A stretch of 64,000 bases of DNA, taken from IMG/VR virus record IMGVR_UViG_3300050166_000025, positions 87,112-151,111 of that record; one strand, 5' to 3'. The number at the start of each line of letters is the position of its first letter. Positions within the stretch are counted from its first letter, which is position 1. Positions 27,976 through 60,049 of this stretch are shown here, piece after piece. The notes below the pieces were generated by a model. It worked only from the letters and a program-made list of their open reading frames with translations. It was not told the origin of the DNA and ran no database searches. The DNA is from a virus. The position numbers were made by a program, and so were the translations under genes.

Positions 27976-28260
27976 TTAATCCCCAGCCATTATTACAAGC
28001 TCCTTTAGTTTCATTAAGGTATCACACTTCTCATACTCTTCCAGTTCTACAAAGTATTCGATTAATAATTGAATAAACTTTGAGCGTTGGCCTAAGCCAT
28101 GTGGAATTTCAATAGTGTTCTTACCGTCTTGAAACGCAATAAACCTGTTAACAGTTTTCGTAAAATTTCTTGTAATGATAGAATAGCTTGAACGCATCAG
28201 CTGGTCTTTTTCATCACCTGTTAAATAACCCATTCTGTTTGTTTGAATGTTTTTTATCAT
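27976..28260 (-). CDS. small protein with C-terminal UVR-like motif (paralogue 1)
   Basis: LLIEYFVELEEYEKCDTLMKLKEL. Confidence 0.7.
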   Translation of the reverse strand: MIKNIQTNRMGYLTGDEKDQLMRSSYSIITRNFTKTVNRFIAFQDGKNTIEIPHGLGQRSKFIQLLIEYFVELEEYEKCDTLMKLKELVIMAGD

Positions 28261-28370
28261 GTTGAATTTTCAACAGTTTATATATTTTAACCAGTAATGA
28301 ATCGGTGTGGTTTGGACAATTTTAATAATGTAATATATTTTAGGATGTGAGCCCTGTATCACCGAAGTGT

Positions 28371-28556
28371 TTATTGATTGGTATTCTTCTGTTGCTTATA
28401 TTCAGCTTTTTGTTTTTGTAATCGCTTCATCGCACTCTTTTTCTTGAACTCTTTTTTCTCTTGTAAGGCTTGCATCTGCTTGATTTTGATAGTTTTACGC
28501 TTAAACTCCTTTAGAGCCTTCTCAATGTTGCCGTCCTTTACATTAATAATAATCAT
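28371..28556 (-). CDS. rpsU: 30S ribosomal protein bS21
   Basis: MIIINVKDGNIEKALKEFKRK...EFKKKS..KR...KAEY; Bacteroidetes-type. Confidence 0.88.
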   Translation of the reverse strand: MIIINVKDGNIEKALKEFKRKTIKIKQMQALQEKKEFKKKSAMKRLQKQKAEYKQQKNTNQ

Positions 28557-28807
28557 AACTCTTGAATTATTTTTTTAAGATTGTGACATTTTTCATACTC
28601 TTCTAAGCCTTCGAACCACTTAACCATTAATTCTAAGGCCTCTATCTTGTTTTCTTTGGTGGCGCTGGATTCTGAGAGCGCTCCCATCTTCTTCGTCATC
28701 AAGGCCCGATATGTTAGTTCCATTATCTGACCCTTGTTCAAGGTTAGAAGTTGATTAAAGAAGGAAGTGTGGTCGTCACTCGAGAGTATGCCGTCGTAGT
28801 CAATCAA
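28553..28807 (-). CDS. small protein with C-terminal UVR-like motif (paralogue 2)
   Basis: LMVKWFEGLEEYEKCHNLKKIIQEL; overlaps dnaJ and rpsU by 4 nt; TTG start. Confidence 0.7.
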   Translation of the reverse strand: MIDYDGILSSDDHTSFFNQLLTLNKGQIMELTYRALMTKKMGALSESSATKENKIEALELMVKWFEGLEEYEKCHNLKKIIQEL

Positions 28808-29619
28808 TTTTCAAGTTGCTTTATTCTATTTATCAACTCAAGTTGATCGGCATTTATACCCGCAAAACTCGTAAGTAATTTTATTAAGATGGCTCCAGCT
28901 TCATTAGTGCCCATGATAGGCAAGCCTTTACCGGCTAACCTGAGAACTTTTCCAGGATTTGAGCCCGGTGGAACGGTGAAGGCTAATTTACCCGAAGGAG
29001 TGTCAATCTCTGTTTTAGTGCCAAGTATCATGTCATACCATCTCAGGCTCACCTCCATCCAAACATCATCGCCCTGAATAATCCAGTTCACGTTGGGTAA
29101 GATAGTGACTTGCACTAATAGGTCACCTCTGGGAGCCTCTCTATTCCATGGGTTCCAGGAGCCTCTGCCTCTAACCCTTAAAGTCATGCCCTCCTTTGCT
29201 CCCTTTGGAATCTCCACTGGCACCTGATCGATTCTGGTGTTAAGAGTTGTCTTGAAGCCGTTATAGATGTGATGTATATCTAATTGAACTGTGACACGCT
29301 GGTCCTGCCCTTTTCTCGAAGAGTCTGCCCGGTTGCCAAAGTGCACGTTGAAATCGTTGGACCAGTTTGTATTGCCCTGATTCCATTGCTGAAACAGGTT
29401 TTCCCAGTCCATTTCACCACCCTTTGACCTATCATACTGTCTACGCTTCTCCTCATCGCCAAGAGTTTGATAAGCCTCCTGTACGGTTTGAAAACGCTGC
29501 TTCGTATCAGTGTCCGGGTTCTTATCAGGATGCAATTCCTTAGCCAGTTTTCTGTACGCTTGTTTAATCTCCTCTTGACTAGCTGTCTCGCTTACTTTTA
29601 ATGTTTGATAATAGCTCAT
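28804..29619 (-). CDS. dnaJ: DnaJ-family co-chaperone (CbpA-type, no zinc finger)
   Basis: J domain with HPD; C-terminal DnaJ_C (GDLLV; LRLAGKGLP). Confidence 0.92.
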   Translation of the reverse strand: MSYYQTLKVSETASQEEIKQAYRKLAKELHPDKNPDTDTKQRFQTVQEAYQTLGDEEKRRQYDRSKGGEMDWENLFQQWNQGNTNWSNDFNVHFGNRADSSRKGQDQRVTVQLDIHHIYNGFKTTLNTRIDQVPVEIPKGAKEGMTLRVRGRGSWNPWNREAPRGDLLVQVTILPNVNWIIQGDDVWMEVSLRWYDMILGTKTEIDTPSGKLAFTVPPGSNPGKVLRLAGKGLPIMGTNEAGAILIKLLTSFAGINADQLELINRIKQLEN

Positions 29620-29755
29620 CCTTGCGAGTTTTAATAGCCTCCTTAATTTTCTCTACTCCGCCTGTCAATAAGTCTGCCTTCTGTTGACGCTCCATTGAGT
29701 CAGCAATTCGTTTTAATTGTTTTGCGATTTCGGCTAGTGATTTTGAATCATCCAT
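29579..29755 (-). CDS. 58-aa helical hypothetical protein absent from the ORF track
   Basis: MDDSKSLAEIAKQLKRIADSMERQQ...KRDS*; late motif at 29781-29788; overlaps dnaJ start. Confidence 0.6.
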   Translation of the reverse strand: MDDSKSLAEIAKQLKRIADSMERQQKADLLTGGVEKIKEAIKTRKDELLSNIKSKRDS

Positions 29756-29810
29756 AATAAGATATTATTTTAATCTATTCTATATATTTTTCACATTTTG
29801 TTTATAGATG

Positions 29811-29834
29811 AAAAAAGGGAGCCAGGGCTCCCTT
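29811..29834 (-). terminator. intrinsic terminator
   Basis: AAGGGAGCC-ag-GGCTCCCTT inverted repeat with T-run on minus strand. Confidence 0.75.
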
Positions 29835-29853
29835 AATCAATCAAACAATTAAA

Positions 29854-30180
29854 CTATTTTATCTCAATGTCTTCCAACTCTGGCAGATACTTGTTTAAGA
29901 CTGCACACTTCTCATACTCTTCTCGCTCAACAAAATACTGAATCATATAACAGATAGTGCTCTTTAGTTGAGACAGGACCTTATTGTCGATTGAAATAAG
30001 TCTTAAGCCTTGAATGTCGATGCCTTTGCGCTCGATCGCTTCATAGTTGGTTCTGACATATCGGTCAATCATTCTATCGTAGATTTGTTGTGACATCTCT
30101 TCAGTTGTTTCATCGGGTTGAAAGTCATCTTCGGAGCCAAAAAAATCTTCATCTTCGTCATTAATGTCGTCAAAAAACAT
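29854..30180 (-). CDS. small protein with acidic N-terminus and C-terminal UVR-like motif (paralogue 3)
   Basis: YMIQYFVEREEYEKCAVLNKYLPEL; has its own class I promoter and terminator. Confidence 0.7.
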   Translation of the reverse strand: MFFDDINDEDEDFFGSEDDFQPDETTEEMSQQIYDRMIDRYVRTNYEAIERKGIDIQGLRLISIDNKVLSQLKSTICYMIQYFVEREEYEKCAVLNKYLPELEDIEIK

Positions 30181-30198
30181 AGTAAGTATCTTTAAGTT

Positions 30199-30235
30199 TA
30201 GGTAAATATAACTAATTTATCCGAATTAAAAAAAT
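30199..30235 (-). promoter_or_regulatory. class I promoter
   Basis: TTTTTTAATTCGGA..GTTATATTTACCTA. Confidence 0.75.
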
Positions 30236-30633
30236 TATTCTTCAACTATTTTTACTTTTGTTGATTTTGATTCCTCATCACATGTCCAGGATACAGTTAA
30301 AATACCCGCCTTTAATTTTGCAGAGATTGAATCGGCATTCACCGTGCTGCCTAATGTAAATGACTTCTTAAAAGAGCTGATAAATTTATTAGTATTTCCA
30401 GCAGGCACATTGGCGCTAACGGTTAAGACTCTGCATTCAACATGCACGTCAATCTCCTTAAGAGTTAAGCCCGGTGCTAAAAAATGAATTTGTCTATTTT
30501 CATAATCAATGTCTACGAGTTCATCTTCTAAGTCGTTATATCTAACTAATGAAGTGGTTGACCATGTTGGCAAATCATTATTTAGAGAGAACATGTCTTT
30601 AATAGTTTGGTAGTGTCTTTGTGTAAAATTCAT
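30235..30633 (-). CDS. small heat-shock protein (Hsp20/alpha-crystallin)
   Basis: APGL..KEIDV; FKKSFTL; ISAKLKAGILTV. Confidence 0.85.
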   Translation of the reverse strand: MNFTQRHYQTIKDMFSLNNDLPTWSTTSLVRYNDLEDELVDIDYENRQIHFLAPGLTLKEIDVHVECRVLTVSANVPAGNTNKFISSFKKSFTLGSTVNADSISAKLKAGILTVSWTCDEESKSTKVKIVEE

Positions 30634-30680
30634 TGTATTTAAGTTTATTTTCTCTGGATTATTCCATTAACTAATATACT

Positions 30681-30722
30681 ATCAATTTGTGTGCCATTAT
30701 GCTAAAATTGGACACATTGTCA
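30681..30722 (-). promoter_or_regulatory. sigma54-like promoter with upstream imperfect palindrome
   Basis: TGGCAC-N5-TTGAT (30696-30681) and TGACA-atg-TGTCC (30722-30710) upstream of hsp20. Confidence 0.55.
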
Positions 30723-30725
30723 CTG

Positions 30726-31460
30726 TTATGGTATAATTGTCATTCCACTTAACTTCAACATCACATCGGCGGTTGCCTTAATGTCTCTCTCGCAATACTC
30801 CATGATTTGTTGAATGTTGCCTTTATAGAATTCAGCGCTCACTTGTCCACCTTCCATCTGCTCTTTTGGTGAAGGAATTCCTAACATCTCACAGATAACA
30901 CCAAGTTTAGCTCCATTCCAGCCACCAAATTTCCAAACATCAGCTGTATCTAATAAGCAGCTGTCCCATGGTTTCACTTTCTGCATGTGAAGTTGCTTTG
31001 GCAGTTCAATCCCATGAATCATCGCTCGTTTACAGATATAAGGCACGTCAAAGCCTTTAATATTATGACCAACTAATTTGACACCAGGTGCCTTAAAGAA
31101 GATGGCGGTGAGCACTTGTAAAAATTCTTTAAGCAACTCTTTCTCATCATCTCCATAGAACGAGCGGGCTTTGAAATCACTCGCGGGACCTTCTTCATCA
31201 AACTTAACTTGTCCCATTGAGATACAGACTATCCGGCCCCATTCTGGGAATAGAGCAGCCTGAATGTTATAGATTTCAGCTTCATTCTTATCCTCTAATT
31301 CAGGCCTGTCTTTACGAATAAACATGCACTTTTCTGCCCACCAAGAAGCCATTTGAGAATTAGCAGATAGTGACAGCTTAAACTCCTCGTAATCTGAATG
31401 CGAAGCAGACGTTTCAATGTCTATGAATAACATCTGTTTTAATTCATCTTGTCTATACAT
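30726..31460 (-). CDS. DEDDy 3'-5' exonuclease (PolB-exo-like)
   Basis: DIET, GHNIKGFD, YCERD. Confidence 0.9.
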   Translation of the reverse strand: MYRQDELKQMLFIDIETSASHSDYEEFKLSLSANSQMASWWAEKCMFIRKDRPELEDKNEAEIYNIQAALFPEWGRIVCISMGQVKFDEEGPASDFKARSFYGDDEKELLKEFLQVLTAIFFKAPGVKLVGHNIKGFDVPYICKRAMIHGIELPKQLHMQKVKPWDSCLLDTADVWKFGGWNGAKLGVICEMLGIPSPKEQMEGGQVSAEFYKGNIQQIMEYCERDIKATADVMLKLSGMTIIP

Positions 31461-31711
31461 TATTTTTCTTCTTTAGTGATATCGAAAATTGAAATTGGGT
31501 AGAACATTTCTGGCTTACCCATTCGGTCTGCCATTTGCTGATCTAGCTTAACGCTAAACTTATACCATTTATACCCATATTGTTTTGTCAAGTCCTTTAA
31601 CTCCTCTACCAGGACTCCGGTTTTGGTCATAAACCCAGCGTGTAAGAATTGATAGGTCTTACCAACCTTTGGATTTGGGACCGTGATAACTTTGGTTTGC
31701 TTCTTTGACAT
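31460..31711 (-). CDS. hypothetical protein (class I promoter)
   Basis: ATG at 31711 (MSKKQTK). Confidence 0.65.
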   Translation of the reverse strand: MSKKQTKVITVPNPKVGKTYQFLHAGFMTKTGVLVEELKDLTKQYGYKWYKFSVKLDQQMADRMGKPEMFYPISIFDITKEEK

Positions 31712-31726
31712 ATTGCTGTTGTTTAT

Positions 31727-31796
31727 AAGGTAAATATAACTAAAAAACCCGAGACTAAAAAATCTCGGGTCATTTATTTTCAAAAAAATTTAATTT
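31727..31796 (-). repeat. fused terminator/class I promoter module, copy 2
   Basis: near-identical to 25221-25290. Confidence 0.85.
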
Positions 31797-32031
31797 ATTT
31801 TATGGAGTGTAAGGGATCGTTCCAGCTCCTGGCTCTTCTAACCTTTGCGTAAGACTCATAGTTAAGATGAACCGCCGCATATCCACCGGTTACCGAGTAT
31901 GGAACATCGTGTTCTGAATACCAGTACGCCGGTGCCTCGCTGATTCTGTCATTTAGAAAGTCAAACAGCTCATCAATCTGCATGTGATGCACATAAATAG
32001 TTACAGTCATATTTGAGTTAGGGTATGCCAT
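31795..32031 (-). CDS. hypothetical protein, possible paralogue of 55859-56089
   Basis: 78 aa; V.IY...L...LN...V.L..E.Y.K pattern. Confidence 0.6.
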   Translation of the reverse strand: MAYPNSNMTVTIYVHHMQIDELFDFLNDRISEAPAYWYSEHDVPYSVTGGYAAVHLNYESYAKVRRARSWNDPLHSIK

Positions 32032-32984
32032 TATTTTTTAACCTGCCAGTTAGGATTTTGTTTTTGATTCTGTTTAATATCTTGCTGTCTAAATTCTTGT
32101 AGGAGCTTAGAGGTCTCGTCGGATAGTTGTGTCTCGTACCAGTCCTCGTAAATTCTCTCATATACCAGAGCCATTACTCCGAATAGAGCACCAGGCTCTG
32201 AATTAATCTCGAACACATAGACTTTATCGTCCTCTGTCTTTGCAATATCGATCGCATAGAAGTCCAGGTCCGAGTGGTAGTCTCCAAAGTATGCAATGCA
32301 TTTTAAGAAATCATCCCCTGGGGTCTCTTCTCTTAAAATATAAGCGAAATTAGTCTCCTTGTCCTCGGCCTTCTTAGCAATATCCTTTGTCTCATCATCC
32401 ATTGGCTTTCTCTCTGCCCATTGAATTACTTCACTTCTCCACACAAAGAACCTATGCTCCTCTTTAATCTTAATCTTTTCAGAAAAGGATGAGAATTGAG
32501 ACAGGTCTACGCTATCCATGCTCTCTGGTGTTTCAAATACTTTAATACCTAAACCGCTATGATTATTATCTGGTTTTGCAACCACCGGAAAGTTAAGGTC
32601 TTTAACTGCTTTAGGATCTAAGACCGTAGGAATAATAAAACCTGATTTAGCGTGAGCCTTGTAAAACTCAGCCTTCGAGCTAACCTTCTCTCTTGCTTGC
32701 AGTTTATTATAAACCTGATTGTCTCTGATAGCGCCAGCCTTGATCATTTTCTCAAGCGTCTTTCTATCGTAGTTTAAGACAGGAAGATCTTTCGGCACCG
32801 TAATAGGCTCATCTCCGCGGGTAATAATAGTCCAGTACTCATGAGTTGAATACTCTGGGCCCGTGATAAACGAGTCATCCAGATCAGCTCTACGAGTAAT
32901 CATTACTTTCTGGAACTCTGATCTTACAAATGCTTCATTCACAAATTGGTCAAATGATAATATCTTAGTATTGAGTGCTCTCAT
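32031..32984 (-). CDS. ATP-grasp ligase, RimK-like
   Basis: FPVVAKP...SGLGI, EEHRFFV, DFYAID, FEINSEPG; N-terminal LSFDQFVNE tag. Confidence 0.8.
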   Translation of the reverse strand: MRALNTKILSFDQFVNEAFVRSEFQKVMITRRADLDDSFITGPEYSTHEYWTIITRGDEPITVPKDLPVLNYDRKTLEKMIKAGAIRDNQVYNKLQAREKVSSKAEFYKAHAKSGFIIPTVLDPKAVKDLNFPVVAKPDNNHSGLGIKVFETPESMDSVDLSQFSSFSEKIKIKEEHRFFVWRSEVIQWAERKPMDDETKDIAKKAEDKETNFAYILREETPGDDFLKCIAYFGDYHSDLDFYAIDIAKTEDDKVYVFEINSEPGALFGVMALVYERIYEDWYETQLSDETSKLLQEFRQQDIKQNQKQNPNWQVKK

Positions 32985-33019
32985 AGTCTATATATTAAAA
33001 AATAAAATACCTTATCTCT

Positions 33020-34885
33020 TTAGGAGTTTAATTGTATTTTTTTAATTGTATTTTTCAATTCTTCTATTTGCGCCTGTTGTTCTTTAATAGCCTCAACTAA
33101 AACTGCAACCATATTTTGATATTTAACAGACTTATTGCCGCTCTCATCAGTTACAACCAATTCAGGTATGTTTAATTCCAATTCTTGTGCAATAAATCCA
33201 ATGTTATTTTTAGTGCCAGTATCTATTCTATCATAGACCACACCTCTTGATTTTAATATTTTATCTAAAGAACTTTCAATTGGTTTTATGTTTTCTTTTA
33301 CTCTAGCATCTGAAAAAGCAGTAATATCGCCAGAAGCATAAACTTCACCAAATGAAACTTTACCTTGAGCAGAACTCCACACGTCATTAAAAGTAGATGT
33401 AGTAGGAGACACTGAAGCACCATATATAGAATATGTGCTTGTTCTTAGTTGTGGGCTAATTCCATAGTTACAATACATATAATAGATTCCGCCGCCTCTT
33501 ACCCACACTACTTCATCAGATGAGTTTGACATTTGCGTGATACCACCAATGGGCGACATTCCAGATACGAATCTATAGTTGTATGATTCAATAAATCTTA
33601 TATTATCATTTGTTCCCCATCCGTTACCATTTGCAAACCATATTAATTTAACTGAAAAACCGGCCGGGTGAGATGACCAAGATGGAACATTTGAATTCAA
33701 GGCAACTCTGATCGATAATTTATATAAAGTATTAGTTCCTAAACCAATTGTAACTGGATAATAAGTATTTACGTCTAATCCTGTAGTGTTAATAGTATAT
33801 GAATATTCTATATCTCCATTTACACCGGCTGCTCCATTAGCTCCACTTGAACCTGAGCTTCCCGATGTTCCGTTTAAACCGCTTGAACCCGAGCTTCCTG
33901 AACTACCAGAATTACCAGATGAACCTGAACTACCAGAATTACCAGATGAACCTGAAGTGCCAGATGTTCCTGTTAAACCCGATGAACCACTAAATCCTGA
34001 AGAACCAGAAGTTCCTGATGAACCTGATGAGCCAGAAGAACCAGATGTACCTGAAGTTCCTGATGAACCACTTGAGCCGGATGTACCAGATGTTCCTGTT
34101 GTACCAGAAGTACCAGAAGTTCCTGATGAACCACTTGAGCCTGAAGTTCCTGATGAACCAGAAGAACCATTAGTTCCTGAAGAACCTGATGTTCCTGCAG
34201 TACCATTAGTTCCTGATGAACCGCTTGAACCAGAAGTCCCAGATGTGCCTGTTGTTCCAGAAGTACCTGATGAACCGCTTGAACCAGAAGTCCCAGATGT
34301 GCCTGTTGTTCCAGAAGTACCTGATGAACCGCTTGAACCTGAAGTTCCTGCTGTACCTGATGAGCCAGATGAACCTGGTGTACCACTTGAACCTGATGTT
34401 CCAGAAGTACCTGTTGTACCCGATGTTCCAGAAGAACCATTGGTTCCGCTTGAACCAGAAGTCCCAGATATGCCTGATGTTCCAGTAGTTCCTGAAGAAC
34501 CTGAAGTCCCAGATATGCCTGATGTTCCAGTAGTTCCTGAAGAACCTGAAGTTCCGCCTGTACCACTTGATCCAGAAGTTCCTGTTATACCTGAAGTCCC
34601 ATCTGTACCTGAAAAGCCCGATGAACCGGAAGTTCCGGAAGTACCATGCGTACCATGCTCGCCTGTAGTTCCTGAAGAACCTGAAGTACCATCAGTACCG
34701 CTTGTTCCTGTTAAGCCAGAGCTACCAGATGTACCGCTTGAGCCAGAAGCACCTATTATTCCATCAATACCAGACGTTCCACTGGTACCTGAACTGCCAT
34801 TAGCTCCAGAAATAGCAGCTTTATTTTTTAAATTATCTAATTCGGCTTTAAGTCCATCTATTTGATTTATACTAACTCTTGGCAT
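33020..34885 (-). CDS. Gly-X-Y (GTS/GSS) fibre protein with C-terminal intramolecular chaperone (peptidase S74)
   Basis: about 110 Gly-X-Y triplets; SDARVKENI...GFIAQEL...coiled coil; ATG 34885 preferred because a late motif lies at 34910-34917. Confidence 0.85.
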   Translation of the reverse strand: MPRVSINQIDGLKAELDNLKNKAAISGANGSSGTSGTSGIDGIIGASGSSGTSGSSGLTGTSGTDGTSGSSGTTGEHGTHGTSGTSGSSGFSGTDGTSGITGTSGSSGTGGTSGSSGTTGTSGISGTSGSSGTTGTSGISGTSGSSGTNGSSGTSGTTGTSGTSGSSGTPGSSGSSGTAGTSGSSGSSGTSGTTGTSGTSGSSGSSGTSGTTGTSGTSGSSGSSGTNGTAGTSGSSGTNGSSGSSGTSGSSGSSGTSGTSGTTGTSGTSGSSGSSGTSGTSGSSGSSGSSGTSGSSGFSGSSGLTGTSGTSGSSGNSGSSGSSGNSGSSGSSGSSGLNGTSGSSGSSGANGAAGVNGDIEYSYTINTTGLDVNTYYPVTIGLGTNTLYKLSIRVALNSNVPSWSSHPAGFSVKLIWFANGNGWGTNDNIRFIESYNYRFVSGMSPIGGITQMSNSSDEVVWVRGGGIYYMYCNYGISPQLRTSTYSIYGASVSPTTSTFNDVWSSAQGKVSFGEVYASGDITAFSDARVKENIKPIESSLDKILKSRGVVYDRIDTGTKNNIGFIAQELELNIPELVVTDESGNKSVKYQNMVAVLVEAIKEQQAQIEELKNTIKKIQLNS

Positions 34886-34949
34886 AACTCGGGATATATT
34901 TGTTTCTTCTATATATTTCCGCATTTGTACTCAATAAAATATATAACCT

Positions 34950-35828
34950 ATGACAAAACGAGCGATATGGGTTCTGGAAAATGTGGATAAAAATCCGGCT
35001 TTTTATAGTAGCGTGAATACATTAATGCTCATGTCGAGTGTCATTAATTGGAAGAGATGGAATAATACGGCTACTGTTTTATATGTTGACAAGTTGACGC
35101 ATAACCACTTACGCGACCTAGACCTATTATCTCACTGGGATCATGTTAATGTTACTCTTCTAGAGCAGCCGACTACAATTGATAAGGTTGCGTTCTGGAG
35201 TTCTTCAAAACTACGTGTCCTATTACAACAGGAAGAGCCAGTAATCATGGTCGACTATGACTTTATTACCTTTACTAATTTAACTGATCCTTCGCCAGCT
35301 TCAAACTTTGTCTACTCGCATGATGAGGATGGAGATTTTGCATACCCTGGAGCAGCGGATCAATTTATCAAATCATGTAAATGGTCTATACCCGATTATT
35401 TAAAGTGGTCTATTAATAATGACGCCATTAACGTATCTTACTTATGCTTTAACGATATTAATTTTCAGAAAGAGTATGCAACGCATAGCCTAAACTCTAT
35501 GGAAGAATTGTCGAGCTTAAAGGCTCCGAAAGGAAATTATGTTTGTTTCGCAGAGCAAAAGATATTGAAGCAACTTGCTCTACACAAAGAGATTGAGCAT
35601 ACACCTCTAATTAAGAACAGGTTTCATGCAGTGAAAGGTGTTTGGCATGAAGACCAGTTTATAGAAACAGGGCTCTGGAGTAAAGATGAAATGCATACTA
35701 AATTTATTCATTATGGACAAACCAAGCATGCTATACAAAAAGATGGAATTGAATTTAGATTTCTATGCAATAGCGTAAAGTCTAAAATCAATTCCACCAC
35801 ACTAGATAGAATTATTGCTATTCAGTAA
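34950..35828 (+). CDS. nucleotide-sugar transferase-like protein (DUF6734-like)
   Basis: FWSSSKL...QEEPVIMVDYD (DxD); AEQ; HY. Confidence 0.6.
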   Translation: MTKRAIWVLENVDKNPAFYSSVNTLMLMSSVINWKRWNNTATVLYVDKLTHNHLRDLDLLSHWDHVNVTLLEQPTTIDKVAFWSSSKLRVLLQQEEPVIMVDYDFITFTNLTDPSPASNFVYSHDEDGDFAYPGAADQFIKSCKWSIPDYLKWSINNDAINVSYLCFNDINFQKEYATHSLNSMEELSSLKAPKGNYVCFAEQKILKQLALHKEIEHTPLIKNRFHAVKGVWHEDQFIETGLWSKDEMHTKFIHYGQTKHAIQKDGIEFRFLCNSVKSKINSTTLDRIIAIQ

Positions 35829-37614: not shown

Positions 37615-38543
37615 TATTCTACGTCAAAGAAAAAAAGTTGAAAAAATCTGGCGTTCTCAATAGAATCACCAAAATATTTTGTCGCAGCATGGATTCTCTT
37701 TGCATTAAAAAGAACTAGTCTATTATAGACATTTGCTGCAGTATCCATTAATTCATACTGAGTTGAATCATAGAAATTAAGATCTTTGCTTAAGCCCTTA
37801 AAGGTTTTATTAAATACTTCATCTGAGTGTGTTCCATCAAACTCTGTTGATCCCGTGTACTTGCTCTTATAGAATGCAGTTCCAGTTTCTAAAGGTGCAT
37901 CAGGTGTTAAGAATACCATCGCAGCGTAAGTCTGTGTATCTACGTGGTATACGATCGGATCTAAAGGAGTGCAATATTGAAAGACTCCATTTGCGTAATT
38001 AACATGATTCCAATTAGTTACTTTTCTACCTATAATTTGTTCGAATCTTTCTTTTGTGCCTTCTACAATAAATCTATCCTGTGTTCTTTTGCCCTTGTGA
38101 TAATTCGAGTTAGCGTAATTCATGTTATTGATAGCATGAGTTCTAACTAAATCAGGATCACTGTAAAAATTATCGACAATGATTAAATCCTTGTGTGTTC
38201 GATTAAAACCAGTGTACATTACTGCCCACACTATAAAATTTTCTAGTATCTTTCTCTTTGATCTGTCAGAGAAAGTGACATACATTGGCATCGATAATTG
38301 TTCTTTAGTTATTTTAAATGAAAAGCCTACACTATCGCTCTTCAATTCAGGATATACTAATTTTACGTCAGGTCTGCTGATAACTGTATGCTCTACTCTA
38401 TCTTCTTCGTTTTCTCCAACCTGAATAGATAAAGCTGAAAGGGATTCACAATGTAACCACCCGGTCACCAGATATGTGGATCCTTCTAACTCAACATTAT
38501 CAATATACATTTTTGTATTGGGATCTAATGTAGTATGATTCAT
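37614..38543 (-). CDS. DUF6445-like 2OG-Fe(II) oxygenase
   Basis: IIVDNFYSDPD.VR, YHVD, YNRLVLF...IH, R.FQLFFF. Confidence 0.7.
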   Translation of the reverse strand: MNHTTLDPNTKMYIDNVELEGSTYLVTGWLHCESLSALSIQVGENEEDRVEHTVISRPDVKLVYPELKSDSVGFSFKITKEQLSMPMYVTFSDRSKRKILENFIVWAVMYTGFNRTHKDLIIVDNFYSDPDLVRTHAINNMNYANSNYHKGKRTQDRFIVEGTKERFEQIIGRKVTNWNHVNYANGVFQYCTPLDPIVYHVDTQTYAAMVFLTPDAPLETGTAFYKSKYTGSTEFDGTHSDEVFNKTFKGLSKDLNFYDSTQYELMDTAANVYNRLVLFNAKRIHAATKYFGDSIENARFFQLFFFDVE

Positions 38544-38550
38544 TATAAAT

Positions 38551-39135: not shown

Positions 39136-39166
39136 ATTTATTAAATGGTGTACTATATTTATCAAA

Positions 39167-39198: not shown

Positions 39199-39227
39199 CA
39201 AGCTTTGGCTTATTTCTTATATAGAAA

Positions 39228-51359: not shown

Positions 51360-51390
51360 ATTAGTATTCTTATATTATATTATTATGGTA

Positions 51391-54300
51391 TTACGATTCA
51401 ACTTGGAATGTAATTACAACTTCGGCTGTTCCAGATGTTGGAGCACCTGTATTAGCACCAGTGATAGCGTTAAAAGTTACTTGTGTAAATCCAGCGGAAG
51501 GTTGTAAGCATGAGAATGTTGAAGCTGTTTTACCAATGAATGCAGTTGTAAAAATGTTAGCCGCATTGATTGCGTGACAAGCAGGATTTAAGACTCTTTT
51601 TCCAAGCGGATGCTGTATTGACAAGTTATTAACTGAAAGTGAATTGCTCCAGCCTGAGATCCATGAAGTTCCATCGTGTAAGATTTGACCTCCTGGACCA
51701 GTTGCACCTAAGATAGGAGCAGCTCCATTTACACCACCACCTGTCATCGCAACTCTAATTGAGTAATTAACTAAGGCTCCAGATCCAGTGATACTCGCGC
51801 TACCAGCAGGGCCGGCAGGACCTTGAGGACCCATAGGACCAGTATTACCCTGTGGACCAGTGATTGAAACACCATTGATACCGCTTGAACCAGAGCTACC
51901 TGAAGTTCCGCTTACACCAGAACTACCTGAAGTTCCTGATGAACCACTTACGCCTGAGGTTCCGCTTGTTCCACTGATACCTGAAGTTCCATTTTGTCCA
52001 TTAGCTCCTGAAGTTCCAGAAGTTCCATTTTGACCATTAGCTCCTGAAGTTCCAGAAGTTCCATTAATACCCGAGGTTCCGTTTACACCTGAAGTTCCAT
52101 TAACTCCCGAGGTTCCGTTTACACCTGAAGTTCCATTCTGACCGTTGACACCTGATGTTCCATTTATGCCAGAAGTTCCGCTTAAGCCAGAGCTACCAGA
52201 GGTTCCATTGATACCCGAAGTTCCACTTGCGCCAGAACTACCTGAAGTTCCATTAACGCCAGAGGTTCCGTTTACACCAGAAGTTCCATTTACACCAGAA
52301 GTTCCGCTTTGTCCGTTAGCTCCAGAGGTTCCGCTTGAACCGCTTGTACCCGTAGTACCTGAAGAACCATTAGTTCCACTTACACCAGAGCTACCAGAAG
52401 TTCCATTTTGTCCGTTAAGACCAGAGCTACCAGAAGTTCCGTTTTGTCCGTTAAGACCAGAGCTACCAGAAGTTCCGTTTTGCCCGTTAACACCGGATGT
52501 TCCGTTTTGACCATTTACACCAGATGTTCCATCTTGTCCGCTAAGACCAGAAGTTCCAGAAGAACCATTAGTTCCGCTTACACCTGAAGTTCCATTTTGT
52601 CCGTTGACACCAGAAGTTCCGCTTACGCCTGAAGTTCCATTTATGCCAGAGGTTCCGTTTTGTCCATCAAGACCTGAAGTTCCAGATTGACCATCTAACC
52701 CCGACGTTCCGTTTTGTCCATTTACACCAGAAGTTCCGTTTTGTCCATTTACACCAGAAGTTCCGTTTTGTCCGTTAGCTCCAGAAGTACCAGTTAAACC
52801 GCTTGTGCCTGAAACACCAGAAGTACCGTCTGTTCCGCTTACACCAGAGCTACCAGAAGTTCCGTTTATTCCACTTGAACCCGAAGTTCCATTTTGACCG
52901 TTAATGCCAGATGTTCCGTTCTGACCATCAAGACCAGAAGTTCCATTTTGTCCATTGACACCAGAAGTTCCAGATTGACCATCTAAACCAGATGTTCCAT
53001 TTTGTCCATCGATACCTGAAGTACCACTTACACCAGAAGAACCGTTAGTTCCACTTATTCCACTTGAACCAGAAGTTCCATCTTGACCATTAAGACCAGA
53101 TGTTCCGTTCTGTCCATCAATGCCTGAAGTTCCAGATTGACCATCAATACCGGAAGTTCCGTTAACACCAGATGTTCCATCTTGTCCATTAACTCCAGAA
53201 GTTCCATCGACACCAGAAGTACCAGTTAAACCGCTTGTTCCGCTTACGCCAGAAGAACCGTTAGTTCCACTTACGCCAGAAGAACCAGAAGTTCCATTTT
53301 GTCCATCAATGCCTGAAGTTCCATTTTGTCCATCAAGACCAGAAGTTCCGTTAACACCTGAGGTTCCATCAACGCCAGAAGTTCCAGATTGGCCGTCTAT
53401 ACCAGAAGTACCAGTTAAACCGCTTGTGCCTGAAACACCAGAAGTACCGTCTGTTCCGCTTACACCAGAAGTTCCAGAGGTTCCATCTTGTCCATCAAGA
53501 CCACTGGTTCCATTAATGCCCGAAGTACCATCGATACCAGAAGTTCCAGATTGACCGTCGATACCAGAAGTTCCGCTAACTCCGTCAATACCAGAGGTTC
53601 CATGCTGTCCATTAAGACCAGAGGTTCCATTGATACCGGAAGTTCCGTTAACACCTGAGGTTCCATTGACACCCGAAGTTCCATTAACTCCAGAGGTTCC
53701 AGCCGTACCTGAAGTACCGCTTACGCCGGAAGAGCTGTTGTTTCCATTTCCAGCGCCGTAAGCATCTAAGTTATATGCAATAACTTGTCCTACTTTCCAG
53801 TTGGGGAATGTAATTACCGGAGACTCGGAATGATCTTCGTGTAAAACATCAACTATTAAACCATCGGTGTCATTATCGTTTCCGTTACCGAATGCGATGT
53901 CCTGTCTTGACCAACCAATGATCTTGTATATTGCATAATGATTAGGCTGATTTACGTTAACAACAGTAATGATACCGCTAGCCTGATCATTTGTAATTCT
54001 ATTGATTAAGAAGTTTTCTAACTGAGTGTTTCTCGCGTTATTAACGTCTATATTTCTAAATCTAATTTGAGTAACGTTCGTTGCTAACTCAGAGTTAAAC
54101 GTTGCTGCTCCTGCCTTTGAAGGTGTAGCTCCAGCAATATCTTCAACCTGAAATCTATTAATTGGAAAAGATCCAGTTCCAAGCGGATACTGTGCAGTGC
54201 TACCAGAACCAGAAGTTCCAGAAGTTCCACCTGATGCAGCTAAGATACTTCCAATTTTTAATTTAGGAAGAATGTATGTTCTTGGAGTTGGATAGTAATC

Positions 54301-54642
54301 GTTGAAAGTAAGAGTTACTTCAGCAAATAGATCTCCAGTAAAAATATTAGAGCTCTGCTCAGAAGTTAAAGTAAAGAATACGTATCCTGGTTGTGAATTT
54401 GCAGCGGTTCCTAATTGTAAAGCTGAAGTTGAACCAAAGATTTGTGGATATGCATATTGATAGACTTTTCTACCTAATGAATCGTATAAAGCAACTGTAA
54501 CCGAATCAGCTGTTGTTAAGTCCCATTGATTATTTAAGTAATCTTTGAAAATTATTAAAGTAATATCTTGAGTCGTTCCCTGTGTGACAGTGTTCAATGA
54601 ATCAATATAAGCTATTACGTTGTCCTGTGATACGTATGGCAT
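51391..54642 (-). CDS. very long Gly-X-Y fibre protein with BppU-like N-terminal attachment domain
   Basis: about 200 triplets (GTS, GQN, GVN, GID); N-terminal 'WDLT.A.SVTVAL...G.V.F.LT...L.AEV'. Confidence 0.75.
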
Positions 54643-54693
54643 TTTATAATTTCTTTTTTTGTTTAGGTATATATCGAACTTTCTGGCTTGGGG

Positions 54694-55380
54694 TTATCCG
54701 TGCTTAAGTTTATGAAATAGAGAAAATTTAGCGATTGGAAATGCACACTCATCAAGCGGCATTGCACTTTCAAAATCGCATCTAATAACAGCCTTATCCG
54801 GTTCTGCGATTCCTATCTGAGTTACATAGTCAGTTAGATTCTTCATATTGAAATCCAAAGTTTCTACGTAAGTTAATTGAAACTTCTTCCAGTTATCGTT
54901 CATTGAAGAAGGCTTATTGAAGCTGTAAATTATTAAGTTGTTATTGTAATCTATTATTATGAAATAGCCTGAGTCAAACACTAATTTCTTTTCAGGAATA
55001 TATGTTAAGTGAATCTTTTTCTCGTGATCTCTCCATCTTTCTCTTAATGTCTTATATAACTTTTCAAATAGATACACTGCGTCACTTGCAATTTTAACCA
55101 TGTCCTCCATTTCTCCAGAGTTCTCTGGATACTCATACTCTAACTGCATGTTATCTATATCAATTCCAACAAGAACTTTCATCTTGTCATCCAATAAGTC
55201 TTTTTGATGTTGAAATCTGTAAAGATTTTCTAAGTGAATCTCTATCTCTTCCAGAACTGGAGCTAAGATATTTTGCTTTATTAGAGATTCATACTTGTTT
55301 ATGGCTGCTAAAAGCTTATAACGCTTGAACTCATAATCGTGAGGTTCAGAATCAAGCCAATTTTTGTTTAGAATATCCAT
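54694..55380 (-). CDS. conserved hypothetical protein
   Basis: 228 aa; W...P.DYEFKRYKLLA motif. Confidence 0.65.
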   Translation of the reverse strand: MDILNKNWLDSEPHDYEFKRYKLLAAINKYESLIKQNILAPVLEEIEIHLENLYRFQHQKDLLDDKMKVLVGIDIDNMQLEYEYPENSGEMEDMVKIASDAVYLFEKLYKTLRERWRDHEKKIHLTYIPEKKLVFDSGYFIIIDYNNNLIIYSFNKPSSMNDNWKKFQLTYVETLDFNMKNLTDYVTQIGIAEPDKAVIRCDFESAMPLDECAFPIAKFSLFHKLKHG

Positions 55381-55514
55381 GGTGTATTTATCTACACCCG
55401 CGATAAATTATGTTAAATTTAGCCTTTTAATAAATCTTTCGGGATAATACGATACTCTTTTAATAAGAAAACATCTTACTACTTTGATACTTGAATACAA
55501 TAATATTAAAATAC

Positions 55515-55539
55515 AAAAGCCCAGATTAATCTGGGCTTT
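55515..55539. terminator. possible terminator hairpin
   Basis: AAAGCCCAGA-ttaa-TCTGGGCTTT. Confidence 0.7.
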
Positions 55540-55542
55540 CAT

Positions 55543-55857
55543 TTACTTCTTTGCTAATTTCTTTCCTGTCTTAAATAAGTTCAGGTCTTTTCCTCTATAT
55601 TCTGCATCATCACATGATAATCCCCATTGTAGAATAAACCAGCTCACCTCGTTCTCTGCCATCTTTGAGTTTAGACCTAACACCTTCATAACTCTTTTCT
55701 TTGCGTACTCTGCAAATTCTCTCTCCTTTTCGTAAGTTGTCTTATATTGCATATACCAGTTAGGTACATCTATGACATCTTCGAAGGTTTTGCCGAACGG
55801 TTCTAACTGTTTATTGATAAGTTCAACGAACAATTCTTTCTGCTTTTCTCTTCTCAT
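55543..55857 (-). CDS. hypothetical protein
   Basis: 104 aa ORF at end of clpP operon. Confidence 0.7.
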   Translation of the reverse strand: MRREKQKELFVELINKQLEPFGKTFEDVIDVPNWYMQYKTTYEKEREFAEYAKKRVMKVLGLNSKMAENEVSWFILQWGLSCDDAEYRGKDLNLFKTGKKLAKK

Positions 55858-55858
55858 T

Positions 55859-56089
55859 TTAATTCTGAATTAATTGAATTTTCTTAAGTACATCACTATC
55901 AGTAAGCTTTATAAAATCTTCAGACGATAAGCTAACTTCGATTATATTATCTTGTAATTTATATGCTTTTGGTGATGTGTAATATTGAACTACAGTATCT
56001 TCACTCGGGTAAAGATTTGCATGCAATTCATTTATTAATTTATTTAATTGCATTAAATCTTCAGTATCAATATAAATGTGAACTCTCAT
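55859..56089 (-). CDS. hypothetical protein, possible paralogue of 31795-32031
   Basis: 76 aa; 1-nt overlap with clpP. Confidence 0.65.
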   Translation of the reverse strand: MRVHIYIDTEDLMQLNKLINELHANLYPSEDTVVQYYTSPKAYKLQDNIIEVSLSSEDFIKLTDSDVLKKIQLIQN

Positions 56090-56790
56090 TATTTTTTAGA
56101 TTTAGTAGGTTTAGACTTAGCTCCAACGATTGAGTCAATGATACCATATTTCTTTGCTGCTTCAGCATCTAACCAAAAATCACGAGTTGCATCTTGCATT
56201 ACTTGATCGGCTGATTTGCCGCAGTATTCTCCTAACAACTTAAATAATATCTTATTAACTTTTTGCCATTCTGCCCAGTCAATTTGAGCGTCTTGGATGT
56301 TTCCACTAAATCCACCAGATGATTGATGTAACATGGTAGTGCTGAAACGGAGTGAGTGTCTTTTCCCTTTAGTTCCTGCGCCAAGAAGCACAGAACCCAT
56401 TGAAGCGGCCATACCGGTGTTGACTGTGATGATGTCAGAATTGATGTAATCCATAACATCGACCATTGAAAGTCCTGACTTTACACTTCCACCCGGAGAG
56501 TCAATATGCATTTTAATGTCGTCTTGATTAATAGAGTCAAGATACATTAACTGAGCCTGTACTACAGTTGACATGTTATCGTTTACTGGACCTGCAACCC
56601 ATAGTAATCTGTCTGCCATTAATCTTGAGAAAATGTCCATCTGAACAGCTCTCATTTCACGCTCTTCTAAAATATATGGTGTTAAAGAAGAATGAACCTG
56701 CTTATTATAATAATCTAAACCCGTAGAAGGCAACCCAAATTCTGATTGAGCAAAGCGCTGAAACTCGGTTTCTTTTGGAAAGTAATTCAT
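56089..56790 (-). CDS. clpP: ATP-dependent Clp protease proteolytic subunit
   Basis: DIFSRL, IDSPGGSV, GMAASMG (Ser), MLHQ (His), RDFWL (Asp); catalytic triad intact. Confidence 0.96.
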   Translation of the reverse strand: MNYFPKETEFQRFAQSEFGLPSTGLDYYNKQVHSSLTPYILEEREMRAVQMDIFSRLMADRLLWVAGPVNDNMSTVVQAQLMYLDSINQDDIKMHIDSPGGSVKSGLSMVDVMDYINSDIITVNTGMAASMGSVLLGAGTKGKRHSLRFSTTMLHQSSGGFSGNIQDAQIDWAEWQKVNKILFKLLGEYCGKSADQVMQDATRDFWLDAEAAKKYGIIDSIVGAKSKPTKSKK

Positions 56791-57107
56791 ATTGTTTCTT
56801 TTAGTTGTTTAATTAATTCGCACGTTTCATATTCTTCAATTTTTGCAAAATATTCAAGTGCTTTGTCTAGTGATTTGAGCCAACCTTCTTTTTCAAGAAC
56901 GAATGTGCTACGATGTAATTTATTGTTAGTGTCTTGGATAATATAACAAAGTATTGATTCTGTTTCAACACCTTCTATTCTATTCATTACATATTGCACG
57001 ATTCTTCTAAAAAATAAATCGGGCTCGTCCATGTATTTGGTGATGTCGTTTCCATCTACATCGGGTTTAATAGTGAACGTTGGAATTAGGCTCATTCTTG
57101 GTATCAT
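56787..57107 (-). CDS. small protein with C-terminal UVR-like motif (paralogue 4)
   Basis: KALEYFAKIEEYETCELIKQLKETI; ATGA overlap with clpP. Confidence 0.7.
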   Translation of the reverse strand: MIPRMSLIPTFTIKPDVDGNDITKYMDEPDLFFRRIVQYVMNRIEGVETESILCYIIQDTNNKLHRSTFVLEKEGWLKSLDKALEYFAKIEEYETCELIKQLKETI

Positions 57108-57982
57108 ACTAATTCAGCAAAGGTTCTGATATTAAGATAATCCGATAATAACTTTTCGTATTCTGTCTGCTTTGCTCCAGCTTCTACTAATTCATTTACT
57201 CTATCAATATATTGTGAACCTGCTAAACTTAACGTAGGTAATAACTTATTATCTTTTTCGATATAGAAGAAGAATGGTTTTAATAGATGCATCTTGTACT
57301 GTGTCGAGTCTTGACCATTTTGCTTGATGCTATCTGCTAAAACAAAGTGATGCTCGTAGAAGTGAATATTGTCTGCGAAGTGAGTGTATGTTCCTAACTT
57401 AAGTGCAGGATACGTATCTTTTAGCCACAAGTACATGTGTTGATGAACGAATGCAAAGAAAGGAGCGTCGAAGGTTAAACCGTAAAAGATGTCGTTTGAC
57501 CGCATCTGAACCTTCATGTTCAATTTGTTATCTCTAACAAAAAAGTTAAGATACATTGTGCACACAAAATCTTTATTGCCTTCAAACTGAAACTTTGGTT
57601 GATTAAGAAAAGCAATAGCTTGTCGAGTATTAATGTCTTGCTTTAGAGAAGTTAAGCACCATGCTAACTGATCGCCGAATAAGAGACTACCATAGTTTGA
57701 ATTGATTTCGTTAGTTCCTGGATTTGTAATGTTTTTCCAGAATCCAGAAAACTTATTAATATAATCTATGTCGTTGTCTCTATTAAGATACCACGCTAAC
57801 TCGCCTGCAAAATATTTATGGTTGAACTTACGATCTTTGAAATTTGCGAATGGTCGAGTTGGATCAACTTGAATTTGACCATAGATTAATTCCTTAACCC
57901 TTAAGTCTCTTGGTTGAGAGATAGAACCTTTCGATTCTATCTCTTTAATTATATTTATGAACGATTCAGAAAAGTTATTCAT
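57104..57982 (-). CDS. thymidylate-synthase-fold enzyme, T4 gp42-like dCMP hydroxymethylase/methylase
   Basis: EINSNYG, KDFVCT, MRSNDIFYGLTFD (Asp at the ThyA Asn177 position), HFYE.HF. Confidence 0.75.
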   Translation of the reverse strand: MNNFSESFINIIKEIESKGSISQPRDLRVKELIYGQIQVDPTRPFANFKDRKFNHKYFAGELAWYLNRDNDIDYINKFSGFWKNITNPGTNEINSNYGSLLFGDQLAWCLTSLKQDINTRQAIAFLNQPKFQFEGNKDFVCTMYLNFFVRDNKLNMKVQMRSNDIFYGLTFDAPFFAFVHQHMYLWLKDTYPALKLGTYTHFADNIHFYEHHFVLADSIKQNGQDSTQYKMHLLKPFFFYIEKDNKLLPTLSLAGSQYIDRVNELVEAGAKQTEYEKLLSDYLNIRTFAELV

Positions 57983-58036
57983 GTATTATGTTATTACGAG
58001 AATATTAAATTATTTTACTACTTTAATATTATACTC

Positions 58037-60049
58037 CTATTTTAAGGAAAGTTTATCTTCTCCTTTAATGTGATTAATAGTGTAAACCTTATCTCCTTGA
58101 GTCATGACTCCATCGATGATTGCGTCAGCTAATAAGTCTTCAACGAAATTTTGAACAGCTCTCTTTAAGGGTCTTGCTCCGTAAGCTGGATCATAACCTT
58201 CTTTAACTAAGAGTAACTTTGCTTGCTTAGTAAATTTCAAATTGTATCCTTGTTCATACATTCTTACCAAGACCTCGCCTAATTCGATGTCTACGATTTT
58301 TAAGATGTCCTCTTCGCTTAACTGATCAAAGATAATGATGTCATCTAAACGATTTAAGAATTCTGGAGCAAACTTGTTCTTTAATTCTTTTCTAACTATC
58401 GCTTCTACTTTAGCCTTTTGCATTACGCTACCTTCAGTCGAGTCGAATCCAATTCCAGTGCCAAAGTCTGCGACTTTACGAGCACCGATATTCGAAGTCA
58501 TGATGATAATTGTATTTGTGAAATCGACAGTTCTTCCTAAAGAATCCGTTAATCTGCCATCATCTAAAACTTGTAATAATGTGTTGAAAATATCAGGGTG
58601 CGCTTTTTCAATCTCGTCAAATAGGATAATTGAGTAGGGCTTGCGGCGAACTGCTTCGGTTAATTGACCACCACCCTCATAACCAACATATCCTGGAGGT
58701 GGGCCGATTAAACGAGATACGTTGAATTTTTCTTGATATTCGGACATATCAATTCTTACCATCGACTCTTCAGAACCAAAGTAGTGCTTCGCGAGTGCTT
58801 TAACAGTTTCAGTTTTACCTACGCCGGTAGGGCCTAAGAATACAAATGAACCGATTGGCTTGTCTGCTGATGAGACACCTGCTCTTGAGCGTCTAATTAC
58901 TCTACATAACGCGTCAACTGCCGAGTCCTGTCCAATGATAAGCTTTTTCAACTCACCTGCCATTCCTGCGATCATTCTATTCTCATCGCCCGTTAATCGC
59001 GTAACTGGAATACCTGTAATGTCTGCGATTGTTGCGGCTACATCCTCTTCCGTGACATGCGTTCTATTATTCTTAATGTTCGATTCCCACTCTGCTAATT
59101 TAGTTTCAATCTCCTCTTTCTTCTTCATCTCTAAATCACGGAAATTTGCAGCTTGTTCGTAATCCTGTTTGTTTACTGCATCTAACTTCGCCTCCTTTAA
59201 TTCTTCGGCCTCGGTTTCCATCTTCTTCATGAAAGTTGGAACTTTAACCTCTTGCATGTGAATTTTAGAACCAGCTTCATCCATTACGTCAATAGCTTTA
59301 TCAGGCAACTCACGCTGGGTGATATATCTCTCGCTTAATTTAACACATGCTTCTAAAGCCTCATCAGTATATTGAACAGAGTGATGATCTTCATACTGTC
59401 CTTTAATTCTCTTTAAGATCTCAATCGTATCTTCGATTGAAGGCGGATCAATAAAGACCTCTTGAAATCTACGTGTTAATGCTCCATCATCTTCAATATG
59501 TTCTCTATACTCATCTAAAGTTGTAGCTCCAATACATTGAACTTGACCACGGGCTAATGCAGGCTTTAAGATATTAGAAGCATCTAAACTACCGCTGACG
59601 CCGCCGGCTCCAACTAGAGTGTGAATCTCATCGATGAAGATGATAATCTGCTTATTCTCTTTGAGTTCTTCTACGATATTCTTCATTCGCTCTTCAAACT
59701 CTCCTCGGTATTTAGTGCCCGCTACAATGTTATTAATATTTAGTGAGACAATTCTTTTGTTGAAAAGAGTTCTAGCAACTTTCTTATCGTTAATTCTTTG
59801 TGCAATCGCTTCGATGATAGCCGTCTTACCAACACCTGGATCTCCAAGTATGATTGGGTTATTCTTCTTTCTACGTGAAAGAATTTGACAAATGCGGTAT
59901 ACTTCCTTTTCTCTACCGATGATTGGATCAAGTTTACCTTCAGCTGCCATCTGTGTAAGATCTTCTCCGAACTGATCAATCATTGGTGTTGACTTGGGTT
60001 TTTTATTGCCCTTATCTCTTTTATCCTCGTTATCTGGATATGTAGCCAT
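58037..60049 (-). CDS. clpC: ClpC-type AAA+ unfoldase lacking the N-terminal Clp-repeat domain
   Basis: GDPGVGKT and GPTGVGKT, both Walker B motifs, UVR M-domain QDYEQAANFRD, IGF loop; only about 20 aa precede AAA-1. Confidence 0.93.
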   Translation of the reverse strand: MATYPDNEDKRDKGNKKPKSTPMIDQFGEDLTQMAAEGKLDPIIGREKEVYRICQILSRRKKNNPIILGDPGVGKTAIIEAIAQRINDKKVARTLFNKRIVSLNINNIVAGTKYRGEFEERMKNIVEELKENKQIIIFIDEIHTLVGAGGVSGSLDASNILKPALARGQVQCIGATTLDEYREHIEDDGALTRRFQEVFIDPPSIEDTIEILKRIKGQYEDHHSVQYTDEALEACVKLSERYITQRELPDKAIDVMDEAGSKIHMQEVKVPTFMKKMETEAEELKEAKLDAVNKQDYEQAANFRDLEMKKKEEIETKLAEWESNIKNNRTHVTEEDVAATIADITGIPVTRLTGDENRMIAGMAGELKKLIIGQDSAVDALCRVIRRSRAGVSSADKPIGSFVFLGPTGVGKTETVKALAKHYFGSEESMVRIDMSEYQEKFNVSRLIGPPPGYVGYEGGGQLTEAVRRKPYSIILFDEIEKAHPDIFNTLLQVLDDGRLTDSLGRTVDFTNTIIIMTSNIGARKVADFGTGIGFDSTEGSVMQKAKVEAIVRKELKNKFAPEFLNRLDDIIIFDQLSEEDILKIVDIELGEVLVRMYEQGYNLKFTKQAKLLLVKEGYDPAYGARPLKRAVQNFVEDLLADAIIDGVMTQGDKVYTINHIKGEDKLSLK

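Follow-up and report, generated by a model that had tools for sequence, protein, structure and literature searches.

How is a ClpC unfoldase that has no N-terminal domain switched on, and do four small proteins of the same phage, all ending in one helical hairpin, take part in it? The question is raised by a stretch of viral DNA of 64,000 nucleotides, bases 87112-151111 of the IMG/VR record IMGVR_UViG_3300050166_000025 (rated 47% complete by CheckV), which is the window whose positions are used throughout; the genome-wide scans covered all 151,111 bases of the record, in six frames for the hairpin motif. A first-pass annotation, made from the letters of the window, had proposed that the phage ClpC and ClpP are programmed by a set of interchangeable adaptors, each combining a substrate binder with a dock of the UVR type. 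By sequence comparison, the four proteins (U1–U4) belong, as paralogues, to a large family of proteins of about 60–150 residues that is confined almost entirely to viruses, and one of them, U4, is a candidate regulator of the phage ClpC–ClpP protease, short of a proven adaptor. The four genes are:

27976-28260, minus strand: U1, a small hairpin protein, 94 residues as an open reading frame (ORF), ending in ...IEYFVELEEYEKCDTLMKLKEL...
28553-28807, minus strand: U2, 84 residues, with a TTG start over the dnaJ stop, ending in ...VKWFEGLEEYEKCHNLKKIIQEL
29854-30180, minus strand: U3, 108 residues, with an acidic disordered N-terminal tail, a long helix and the hairpin ...IQYFVEREEYEKCAVLNKYL...
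56787-57107, minus strand: U4, 106 residues, of the EEYETC subtype, recognized by motif scan, AlphaFold2 (AF2) model and synteny

The motif that they share, [YW]F-x3-EEYE[KT]C, occurs exactly four times in the genome, always 10-20 residues before the C-terminus of a small minus-strand ORF, and the first-pass annotation had placed all four copies correctly; the chance expectation for the core EEYE[KT]C, computed from residue frequencies, is 0.0015 occurrences. The unfoldase and the genes that follow it lie elsewhere in the window:

58037-60049, minus strand: ClpC-type unfoldase without N-domain, 670 residues, with AAA, AAA_lid_9, AAA_2 and D2-small domains
59114-59215, minus strand: UVR motif of the ClpC M-domain (…AVNKQDYEQAANFRD…), recognized by Pfam UVR, in which Y297 and R304 are the counterparts of F436 and R443 in S. 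aureus ClpC
57104-57982, minus strand: thymidylate-synthase-family (TS-like) gene, about 290 residues, with a partial match to PF00303 (E 1e-17)
56089-56790, minus strand: ClpP peptidase with an N-terminal extension of about 45 residues (PF00574, 184.6 bits; Ser, His and Asp motifs)

ClpC unfoldases, class I Hsp100 proteins with a short M-domain, are restrained by their N- and M-domains, and to our knowledge all the characterised ClpC adaptors use the N-domain. The phage protein has two AAA+ modules, an M-domain that matches UVR at 23.5-24.8 bits, and the ClpP-binding loop GIGF, while Clp_N (PF02861) has no match anywhere in the genome at E<=1; the first-pass description of a ClpC that keeps both ATPase modules and the IGF loop and lacks the N-domain is thus borne out. 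The protein aligns to residues 149-799 of S. aureus ClpC, its best PDB matches are the ClpCs of S. aureus and B. subtilis, its tip residues Y297 and R304 are invariant among 20 phage ClpCs, and the best 120 metagenomic homologues listed for it range from 637 to 682 residues. Judged by its sequence, it is a natural ΔN ClpC with intact M-domain tip residues, comparable with the engineered ΔN ClpC of S. aureus (PMC12583610), in that it begins at the same point and has retained the counterparts of both F436 and R443. Of these, F436 sits at the M-domain tip and is required for the head-to-head contact that represses ClpC as well as for the binding of MecA (PMC5699869). Engineered ΔN ClpC assembles, via its M-domain, into ring dimers and, with ClpP, into rods, and has no degrading activity as long as F436 is intact; the ΔN F436A protein is hyperactive (PMC12583610). 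What ΔN ClpC lacks is precisely an activator occupying the M-domain tip (PMC5699869, PMC12583610); therefore, a natural ΔN ClpC whose tip is intact should need a tip-binding factor.

A U4-like protein is the obvious candidate for this factor, because it keeps the aromatic and acidic residues of the tip and is made together with ClpP. Indeed, the U4 gene overlaps clpP downstream by 4 nucleotides (56787-56790, ATGA) and the TS-like gene upstream by another 4 (57104-57107), so that the coupling to clpP noticed at first pass is confirmed; the ClpP itself covers positions 5-180 of the 182 of the PF00574 profile, and the motifs GMAASMG, MLHQ and RDFW can be read in it. Among 31 viral records carrying the hairpin, ClpC and ClpP are both present in 8, and in all 8 the order is clpC, TS-like gene, U4-type gene, clpP, the U4 gene abutting or overlapping clpP and the U4-type proteins all reading EE[YF]ETC; the remaining records with three copies are fragments, 12-50% complete, with the chaperone block only. 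The association between motif and clpC that had been predicted for all four proteins holds, in these records, for the U4 subtype. When ClpC and U4 were folded as two chains, ipSAE was 0.33 in three runs and 0.00 in three controls, the contacts agreeing by at least 89% among the ClpC–U4 runs, with a partner pLDDT of at least 75. Of 80 solved complexes, 58 attain the mark set for ipSAE, as against 2 of 110 mismatches; those that attain it with values of 0.60 or below are just 7 of the solved complexes, along with the two mismatches. The predicted pairing of ClpC with U4 is, on this scale, weakly supported. From conserved gene order together with this weak pass of the folding model, U4 appears to be the only paralogue firmly linked to ClpC–ClpP.

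The explanation that we favour, tentatively and as a little short of probable, is that the hairpins of the U proteins dock on the UVR tip of the ClpC M-domain and that U4 unlocks the phage ClpC–ClpP. A phage ClpC of the ΔN type would self-associate head-to-head via its tip residues and stay inactive until that contact is broken; the hairpin would dock on the UVR coiled-coil tip of the M-domain; U4, co-translated with ClpP, would cap the tip and so release active ClpC–ClpP hexamers, perhaps bringing cargo as well; U1–U3 and the single-copy relatives of ClpC-less phages would use the same hairpin on phage or host ClpC. In this scheme the binding, the docking site, the sign of the effect and the roles of U1–U3 are what we infer. 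A more specific form of it, in which the hairpins mimic the M-domain tip, U4 is a general activator stoichiometric with ClpP, U1–U3 are cargo-specific adaptors and the relatives in ClpC-less phages act on host ClpC, appears unlikely when taken as a whole; if tip mimicry were true, it would represent a virus-specific adaptor system operating via the M-domain only and bypassing all the host N-domain adaptors. An abundant phage lineage has an N-less ClpC, and U4 is a concrete candidate for switching such a motor on.

Two known cases provide precedents for the two halves of the proposed mechanism: plant UVR-domain proteins have been trapped on CLPC1 (PMC8889267), and SPO1 Gp53 is encoded by a phage and acts on host ClpC in the manner of an adaptor (PMC6873191). 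In plants, several unrelated UVR-hairpin proteins (CLPF, EXE1/2 and UVR2-4) associate with a ClpC that has a UVR M-domain, and have been proposed to be adaptors or regulators (PMC8889267); these proteins carry a canonical UVR and were physically trapped on CLPC1, whereas the phage family is known here from sequence and models, and plant CLPC has an N-domain, unlike the phage ClpC. SPO1 Gp53 and the ClpS of jumbo phages (PMC7824862) are comparable as small phage proteins reprogramming a Clp unfoldase; Gp53, however, competes with MecA on the N-domain and linker of host ClpC and has no UVR-like motif (PMC6873191), and ClpS has a different fold and binds the N-domain, whereas the unfoldase considered here is the phage's own and N-less. 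MecA, too, differs in fold and depends on the N-domain as well, and no family member resembles it in sequence. More generally, Pfam and PHROG scans returned nothing above noise for U1–U4, for the C-terminal pieces of the four or for 100 relatives, and none of these proteins resembles MecA, McsB or ClpS.

The next question is whether the hairpin is kin to UVR. In the AF2 models of U3 and U4, the motif forms a helix-turn-helix of about 35 residues, which is the hairpin expected of a UVR motif. The U3 model (pLDDT 78) has helices at 24-52, 56-62, 67-85 and 89-96, with the motif spanning the antiparallel pair 67-85/89-96; the U4 model (pLDDT 84) has a strand, a helix at 29-45, a beta-hairpin at 52-70 and the helical hairpin 73-89/93-105. 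The inserts thus differ, being all-helical in U3 and a beta-hairpin in U4. For comparison, 38 UVR domains were taken from Bacteroidota UvrB, nuclease-UVR proteins and ClpC, and from phage ClpCs. With the aromatic residue as the anchor, family and UVR domains line up without gaps at hydrophobic positions -13, -9, -6, 0, +3, +4, +6 and +13, and likewise at acidic positions -2, -1 and +1. A profile of 149 hairpins aligned to the 38 UVR domains by hhalign scores 15.5 (P 0.0013), a value reached by 0 of 769 column-shuffled UVR profiles (mean 6.5, standard deviation 1.4, maximum 13.1), the reversed profile scoring 9.8. Furthermore, those members that retain the Arg-Asp pair of UVR match PF02151: one reaches 21.6 bits (gathering cut-off 21.5) and three others about 17 bits, and among these members is a protein of U3 type, encoded by a fragment of a related phage with the same gene cluster. 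Among the neighbours of U4 in the Atlas, by features and by shape, are viral clusters in which UVR is found in 39% and 13% of the members; these are to be taken as leads only.

The differences from UVR are equally regular. Like UVR, the family has a helix-turn-helix of about 35 residues with the same hydrophobic positions, and of the UVR signature [DE][YF]E-x-A-A-x-x-R-D it keeps the pair of acidic residues, the aromatic position and the Glu after it; unlike UVR, it reads C-A in place of A-A (Cys in 100% of 222 motif windows), has Phe for the Ala at -6, and is almost entirely viral. The hairpin therefore departs from the full signature and, as it stands, falls outside the Pfam family; the evidence nevertheless points to a diverged, cysteine-bearing UVR subfamily, that is, to remote kin. 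Of the first-pass assignment to UVR, the gap-free colinearity, the result against shuffled profiles and the matches of the Arg-Asp members stand, while U1–U4 themselves are unmatched by Pfam. A hairpin of the tetratricopeptide repeat (TPR) type was considered and rejected, no member matching any TPR family at E<=10 and the register fitting UVR; a metal site at the Cys was likewise rejected, there being no second conserved Cys or His.

The family was collected by searching a 36-column hairpin profile against 1.84 billion representatives clustered at 50% identity, which returned 488 clusters at E<=1e-3, nearly all of them proteins of 45-150 residues with the motif at the C-terminus. A scan of viral contigs for the exact DNA motif gave at least 120 stretches; the 80 loci analysed contain 92 ORFs of 57-154 residues with the motif, the Cys lying 10-19 residues from the end in 76 of the 92. 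The Cys and the first Glu are invariant, and F, E, Y, E and K are conserved at 92% or more. The N-terminal parts of U1–U4 show no mutual similarity by BLAST, as the first-pass annotation had it in calling them unrelated; nevertheless, of 100 members compared, about 90% share the helix signature [MY]..N..[YFW]..[IL]. Judged from its sequences, the family is more aptly seen as one architecture: a helix bearing a conserved aromatic residue at the N-terminus, then an insert that varies, and the helix-turn-helix at the C-terminus. Neither tblastn of U1 and U4 against GenBank phages nor blastn of the locus gave a match, the hairpin motif was not found in a literature search, and looking up two representatives of the family by their exact protein sequences yielded no context that could be used. 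What emerges is an unannotated phage family of about 490 clusters, defined by its hairpin and missed by the current domain libraries; if the link to Clp fails, the partner of the family and its invariant Cys remain to be explained.

Several observations weigh against docking on ClpC, either because they loosen the kinship with UVR or because they separate the family from the Clp genes. As to the first, Pfam UVR misses U1–U4 even at E<=10, its only match in this genome being the ClpC M-domain, and 0 of 100 family members match it; the hhalign probability is no more than 18%; the invariant Arg-Asp of UVR is lost (mostly K-K, or other) in about 97% of the 222 windows, and R443 of S. aureus matters for the function of the M-domain. 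A profile search of PDB sequences gave nothing at E<=10, and Foldseek of the U3 model against the PDB gave nothing below E=1, the matches being generic helical ones; its weak rows (the UvrB C-terminal domain 1qoj, with a root-mean-square deviation of 1.6 over 41 columns, ClpC chains, ferritins and designed helices) are not discriminating, and a wide VIA-align search with the U4 model reached a best Z of 5.4, with generic helical or TPR-like matches only. As to the second, the ClpC–U4 fold passes weakly and comes with no reported interface; the coupling of U4 is with clpP and with the TS-like gene, and clpC is not directly part of it; U1–U3 are linked to Clp solely by their adjacency to Hsp20, DnaJ and bS21; and of two huge GenBank phages with an N-less ClpC, the second has no family gene. 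The first of these, the 642-kb uncultured phage LR756502.1 (loci L220, L223 and L226), combines an N-less ClpC with a 73-residue EEYEKC protein, and adds two small proteins ending in a canonical UVR, one of 138 residues and one of 196 residues that resembles the Bacteroidota nuclease-UVR proteins. Finally, the N-terminal helix conserved across subfamilies weakens the picture of separate heads on a common tag, and with it the idea of interchangeable substrate binders on a UVR dock.

A further point concerns distribution. A family gene is present in eight genomes that are complete or nearly so, and six of these (G019, G022, G059, G064, G066 and G080; 59-120 kb) have neither ClpC nor ClpP; each of the six carries one copy, of a subtype with NNAY or a near match to it in its N-terminal helix. 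Therefore, phage ClpC cannot be the general partner of the family, and the first-pass expectation that the motif as a whole would co-occur with clpC is contradicted. UVR hairpins dimerise, and the hairpin could accordingly be a general module of self- or hetero-association, with U4 serving either the TS-like enzyme or ClpP, whose gating, assembly or N-terminal processing it might assist, and U1–U3 serving DnaJ, Hsp20 or the ribosome. The prevalence of the family in phages without ClpC or ClpP speaks for such a module, as do the translational coupling of U4 to clpP and the TS-like gene rather than to clpC and that of U2 to dnaJ and rpsU; the conserved Cys and Phe, which are non-UVR features, and the shared N-terminal helix, as in an ordinary single-domain family, would also fit. 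On the other hand, it has to contend with a clpC operon conserved in 8 of 8 records, with the ClpC–U4 fold at 0.33 against 0.00 in controls (a weak support), with a family gene adjoining a phage clpS, and with a phage ClpC of a type expected to need a binder at its M-domain tip; on balance we consider it rather unlikely. In five phages without ClpC, the genes next to the single-copy family member reveal no partner that recurs, bar one clpS. The latter is found in the contig IMGVR_UViG_3300032011_000034 (L039 9923-10504; 23% complete, with no ClpC or ClpP), in which a family member of 79 residues is followed, 111 nucleotides later, by a phage ClpS of 76 residues (PF02617, 40.7 bits).

The same ClpC-less genomes raise the alternative that the family is directed at the host, its hairpins binding the M-domain of host ClpC and redirecting or blocking proteolysis, or mimicking the hairpin of UvrB, UvrC or nuclease-UVR proteins against repair, with the phage ClpCP incidental. 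The host is probably a member of the Bacteroidota, as suggested by leaders poor in Shine-Dalgarno sequences and by the phage's own bS21: Shine-Dalgarno-like 4-mers precede 3 of 138 ORFs (2% versus 8% in the background), and the leaders are A-rich and G-poor. Bacteroidota genomes encode 3-5 UVR proteins each, namely UvrB, UvrC, a ClpC of about 850 residues and a nuclease-UVR protein of about 210 residues, and because this ClpC has a UVR M-domain, it is a possible target of the single-copy members. Besides these host proteins and the depleted leaders, the single-copy members in complete phages of 59-120 kb without ClpC and the precedent of SPO1 Gp53 (PMC6873191) are in keeping with a host target. 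Such a target would, however, leave unexplained both the fixation of one subtype inside the clpC–clpP operon and the rise to four copies solely in the lineage that carries ClpCP, and nothing connects the family genes with repair genes; as an account of the family, we regard it as quite improbable.

The phage belongs to a T4-like lineage of roughly 250 kb, in which the hairpin family has expanded to four copies among proteostasis genes. Those surrounding U1–U3 are, with the terminator-like element that accompanies them:

27255-27956, minus strand: PhoH-like ATPase at the downstream end of the conserved block (PF02562 on the orthologue; synteny)
28371-28556, minus strand: bS21 ribosomal protein gene, rpsU (PF01165, 36 bits), whose start overlaps the U2 stop (ATGA)
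28804-29619, minus strand: DnaJ-like co-chaperone with J domain and DnaJ_C, by family match
29811-29832, minus strand: GC-rich hairpin followed by a T-run, directly 3' of U3, read from the sequence
30235-30633, minus strand: Hsp20/alpha-crystallin small heat-shock protein, by family match

The gene order Hsp20-U3-x-DnaJ-U2-bS21-U1-PhoH is kept in a 247-kb NCBI metagenomic contig and in a JGI contig, with near-identical hairpins, and all four U genes are retained at the same places in related phages. U2 is wedged between dnaJ and rpsU, as had been noticed at first pass: its TTG overlaps the dnaJ stop, and an ATGA overlap joins it to the rpsU start. For U1, whose orthologues in L001 and L003 are nearly identical, orthologues suggest a start at the second ATG (28233), giving 27976-28233 and 85 residues. 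U3 stands alone 3' of hsp20, with a spacer of 54 nucleotides upstream and the hairpin downstream, which looks like an intrinsic terminator; U3 accordingly looks monocistronic.

As to the leaders of these genes, AAATATAT(A/T) motifs are found at 28278-28337 and 29780-29795, two copies lying upstream of U1 and the motif occurring also upstream of the 58-residue ORF that heads the dnaJ-U2-rpsU unit; the U3 leader is without it and has TTATATTTA in its place. The difference between the U3 leader and those of U1 and the dnaJ unit may reflect different putative promoter classes.

Outside viruses, a single family match was found among 185,579 bacterial and archaeal species genomes: a chromosomal protein of 105 residues with QYFEDREEYEACA in Telluribacter sp. 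SYSU D00476 (L056 7818-8135), a member of the Bacteroidota, at a site that is not a prophage. This gene adjoins that of a large AAA+ ATPase, probably of the rarA type by sequence, and may be either a relative native to cells or a gene taken up from a phage; for the host of the phage the match is a hint, and no assignment is drawn from it. Among atypical members, the hairpin terminates much longer proteins in P0107 (289 residues) and P0066 (235 residues), while P0126 (314 residues), with six tandem LQEFEKCATLWG repeats, is probably unrelated.

In the protease operon, the TS-like gene, of a nucleotide-metabolism type, is fixed between clpC and U4 in 8 of 8 operons (including L090-L096). Downstream of clpP (window 55543-56089), small ORFs of 68-76 and about 104 residues are conserved in related phages. 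One further gene lies upstream of clpC:

60067-60525, minus strand: conserved gene of 151 residues, directly upstream of clpC in most related operons

In the region 60067-61284 of the window, this ORF is accompanied by one of about 220-250 residues, and both are kept in the orthologues.

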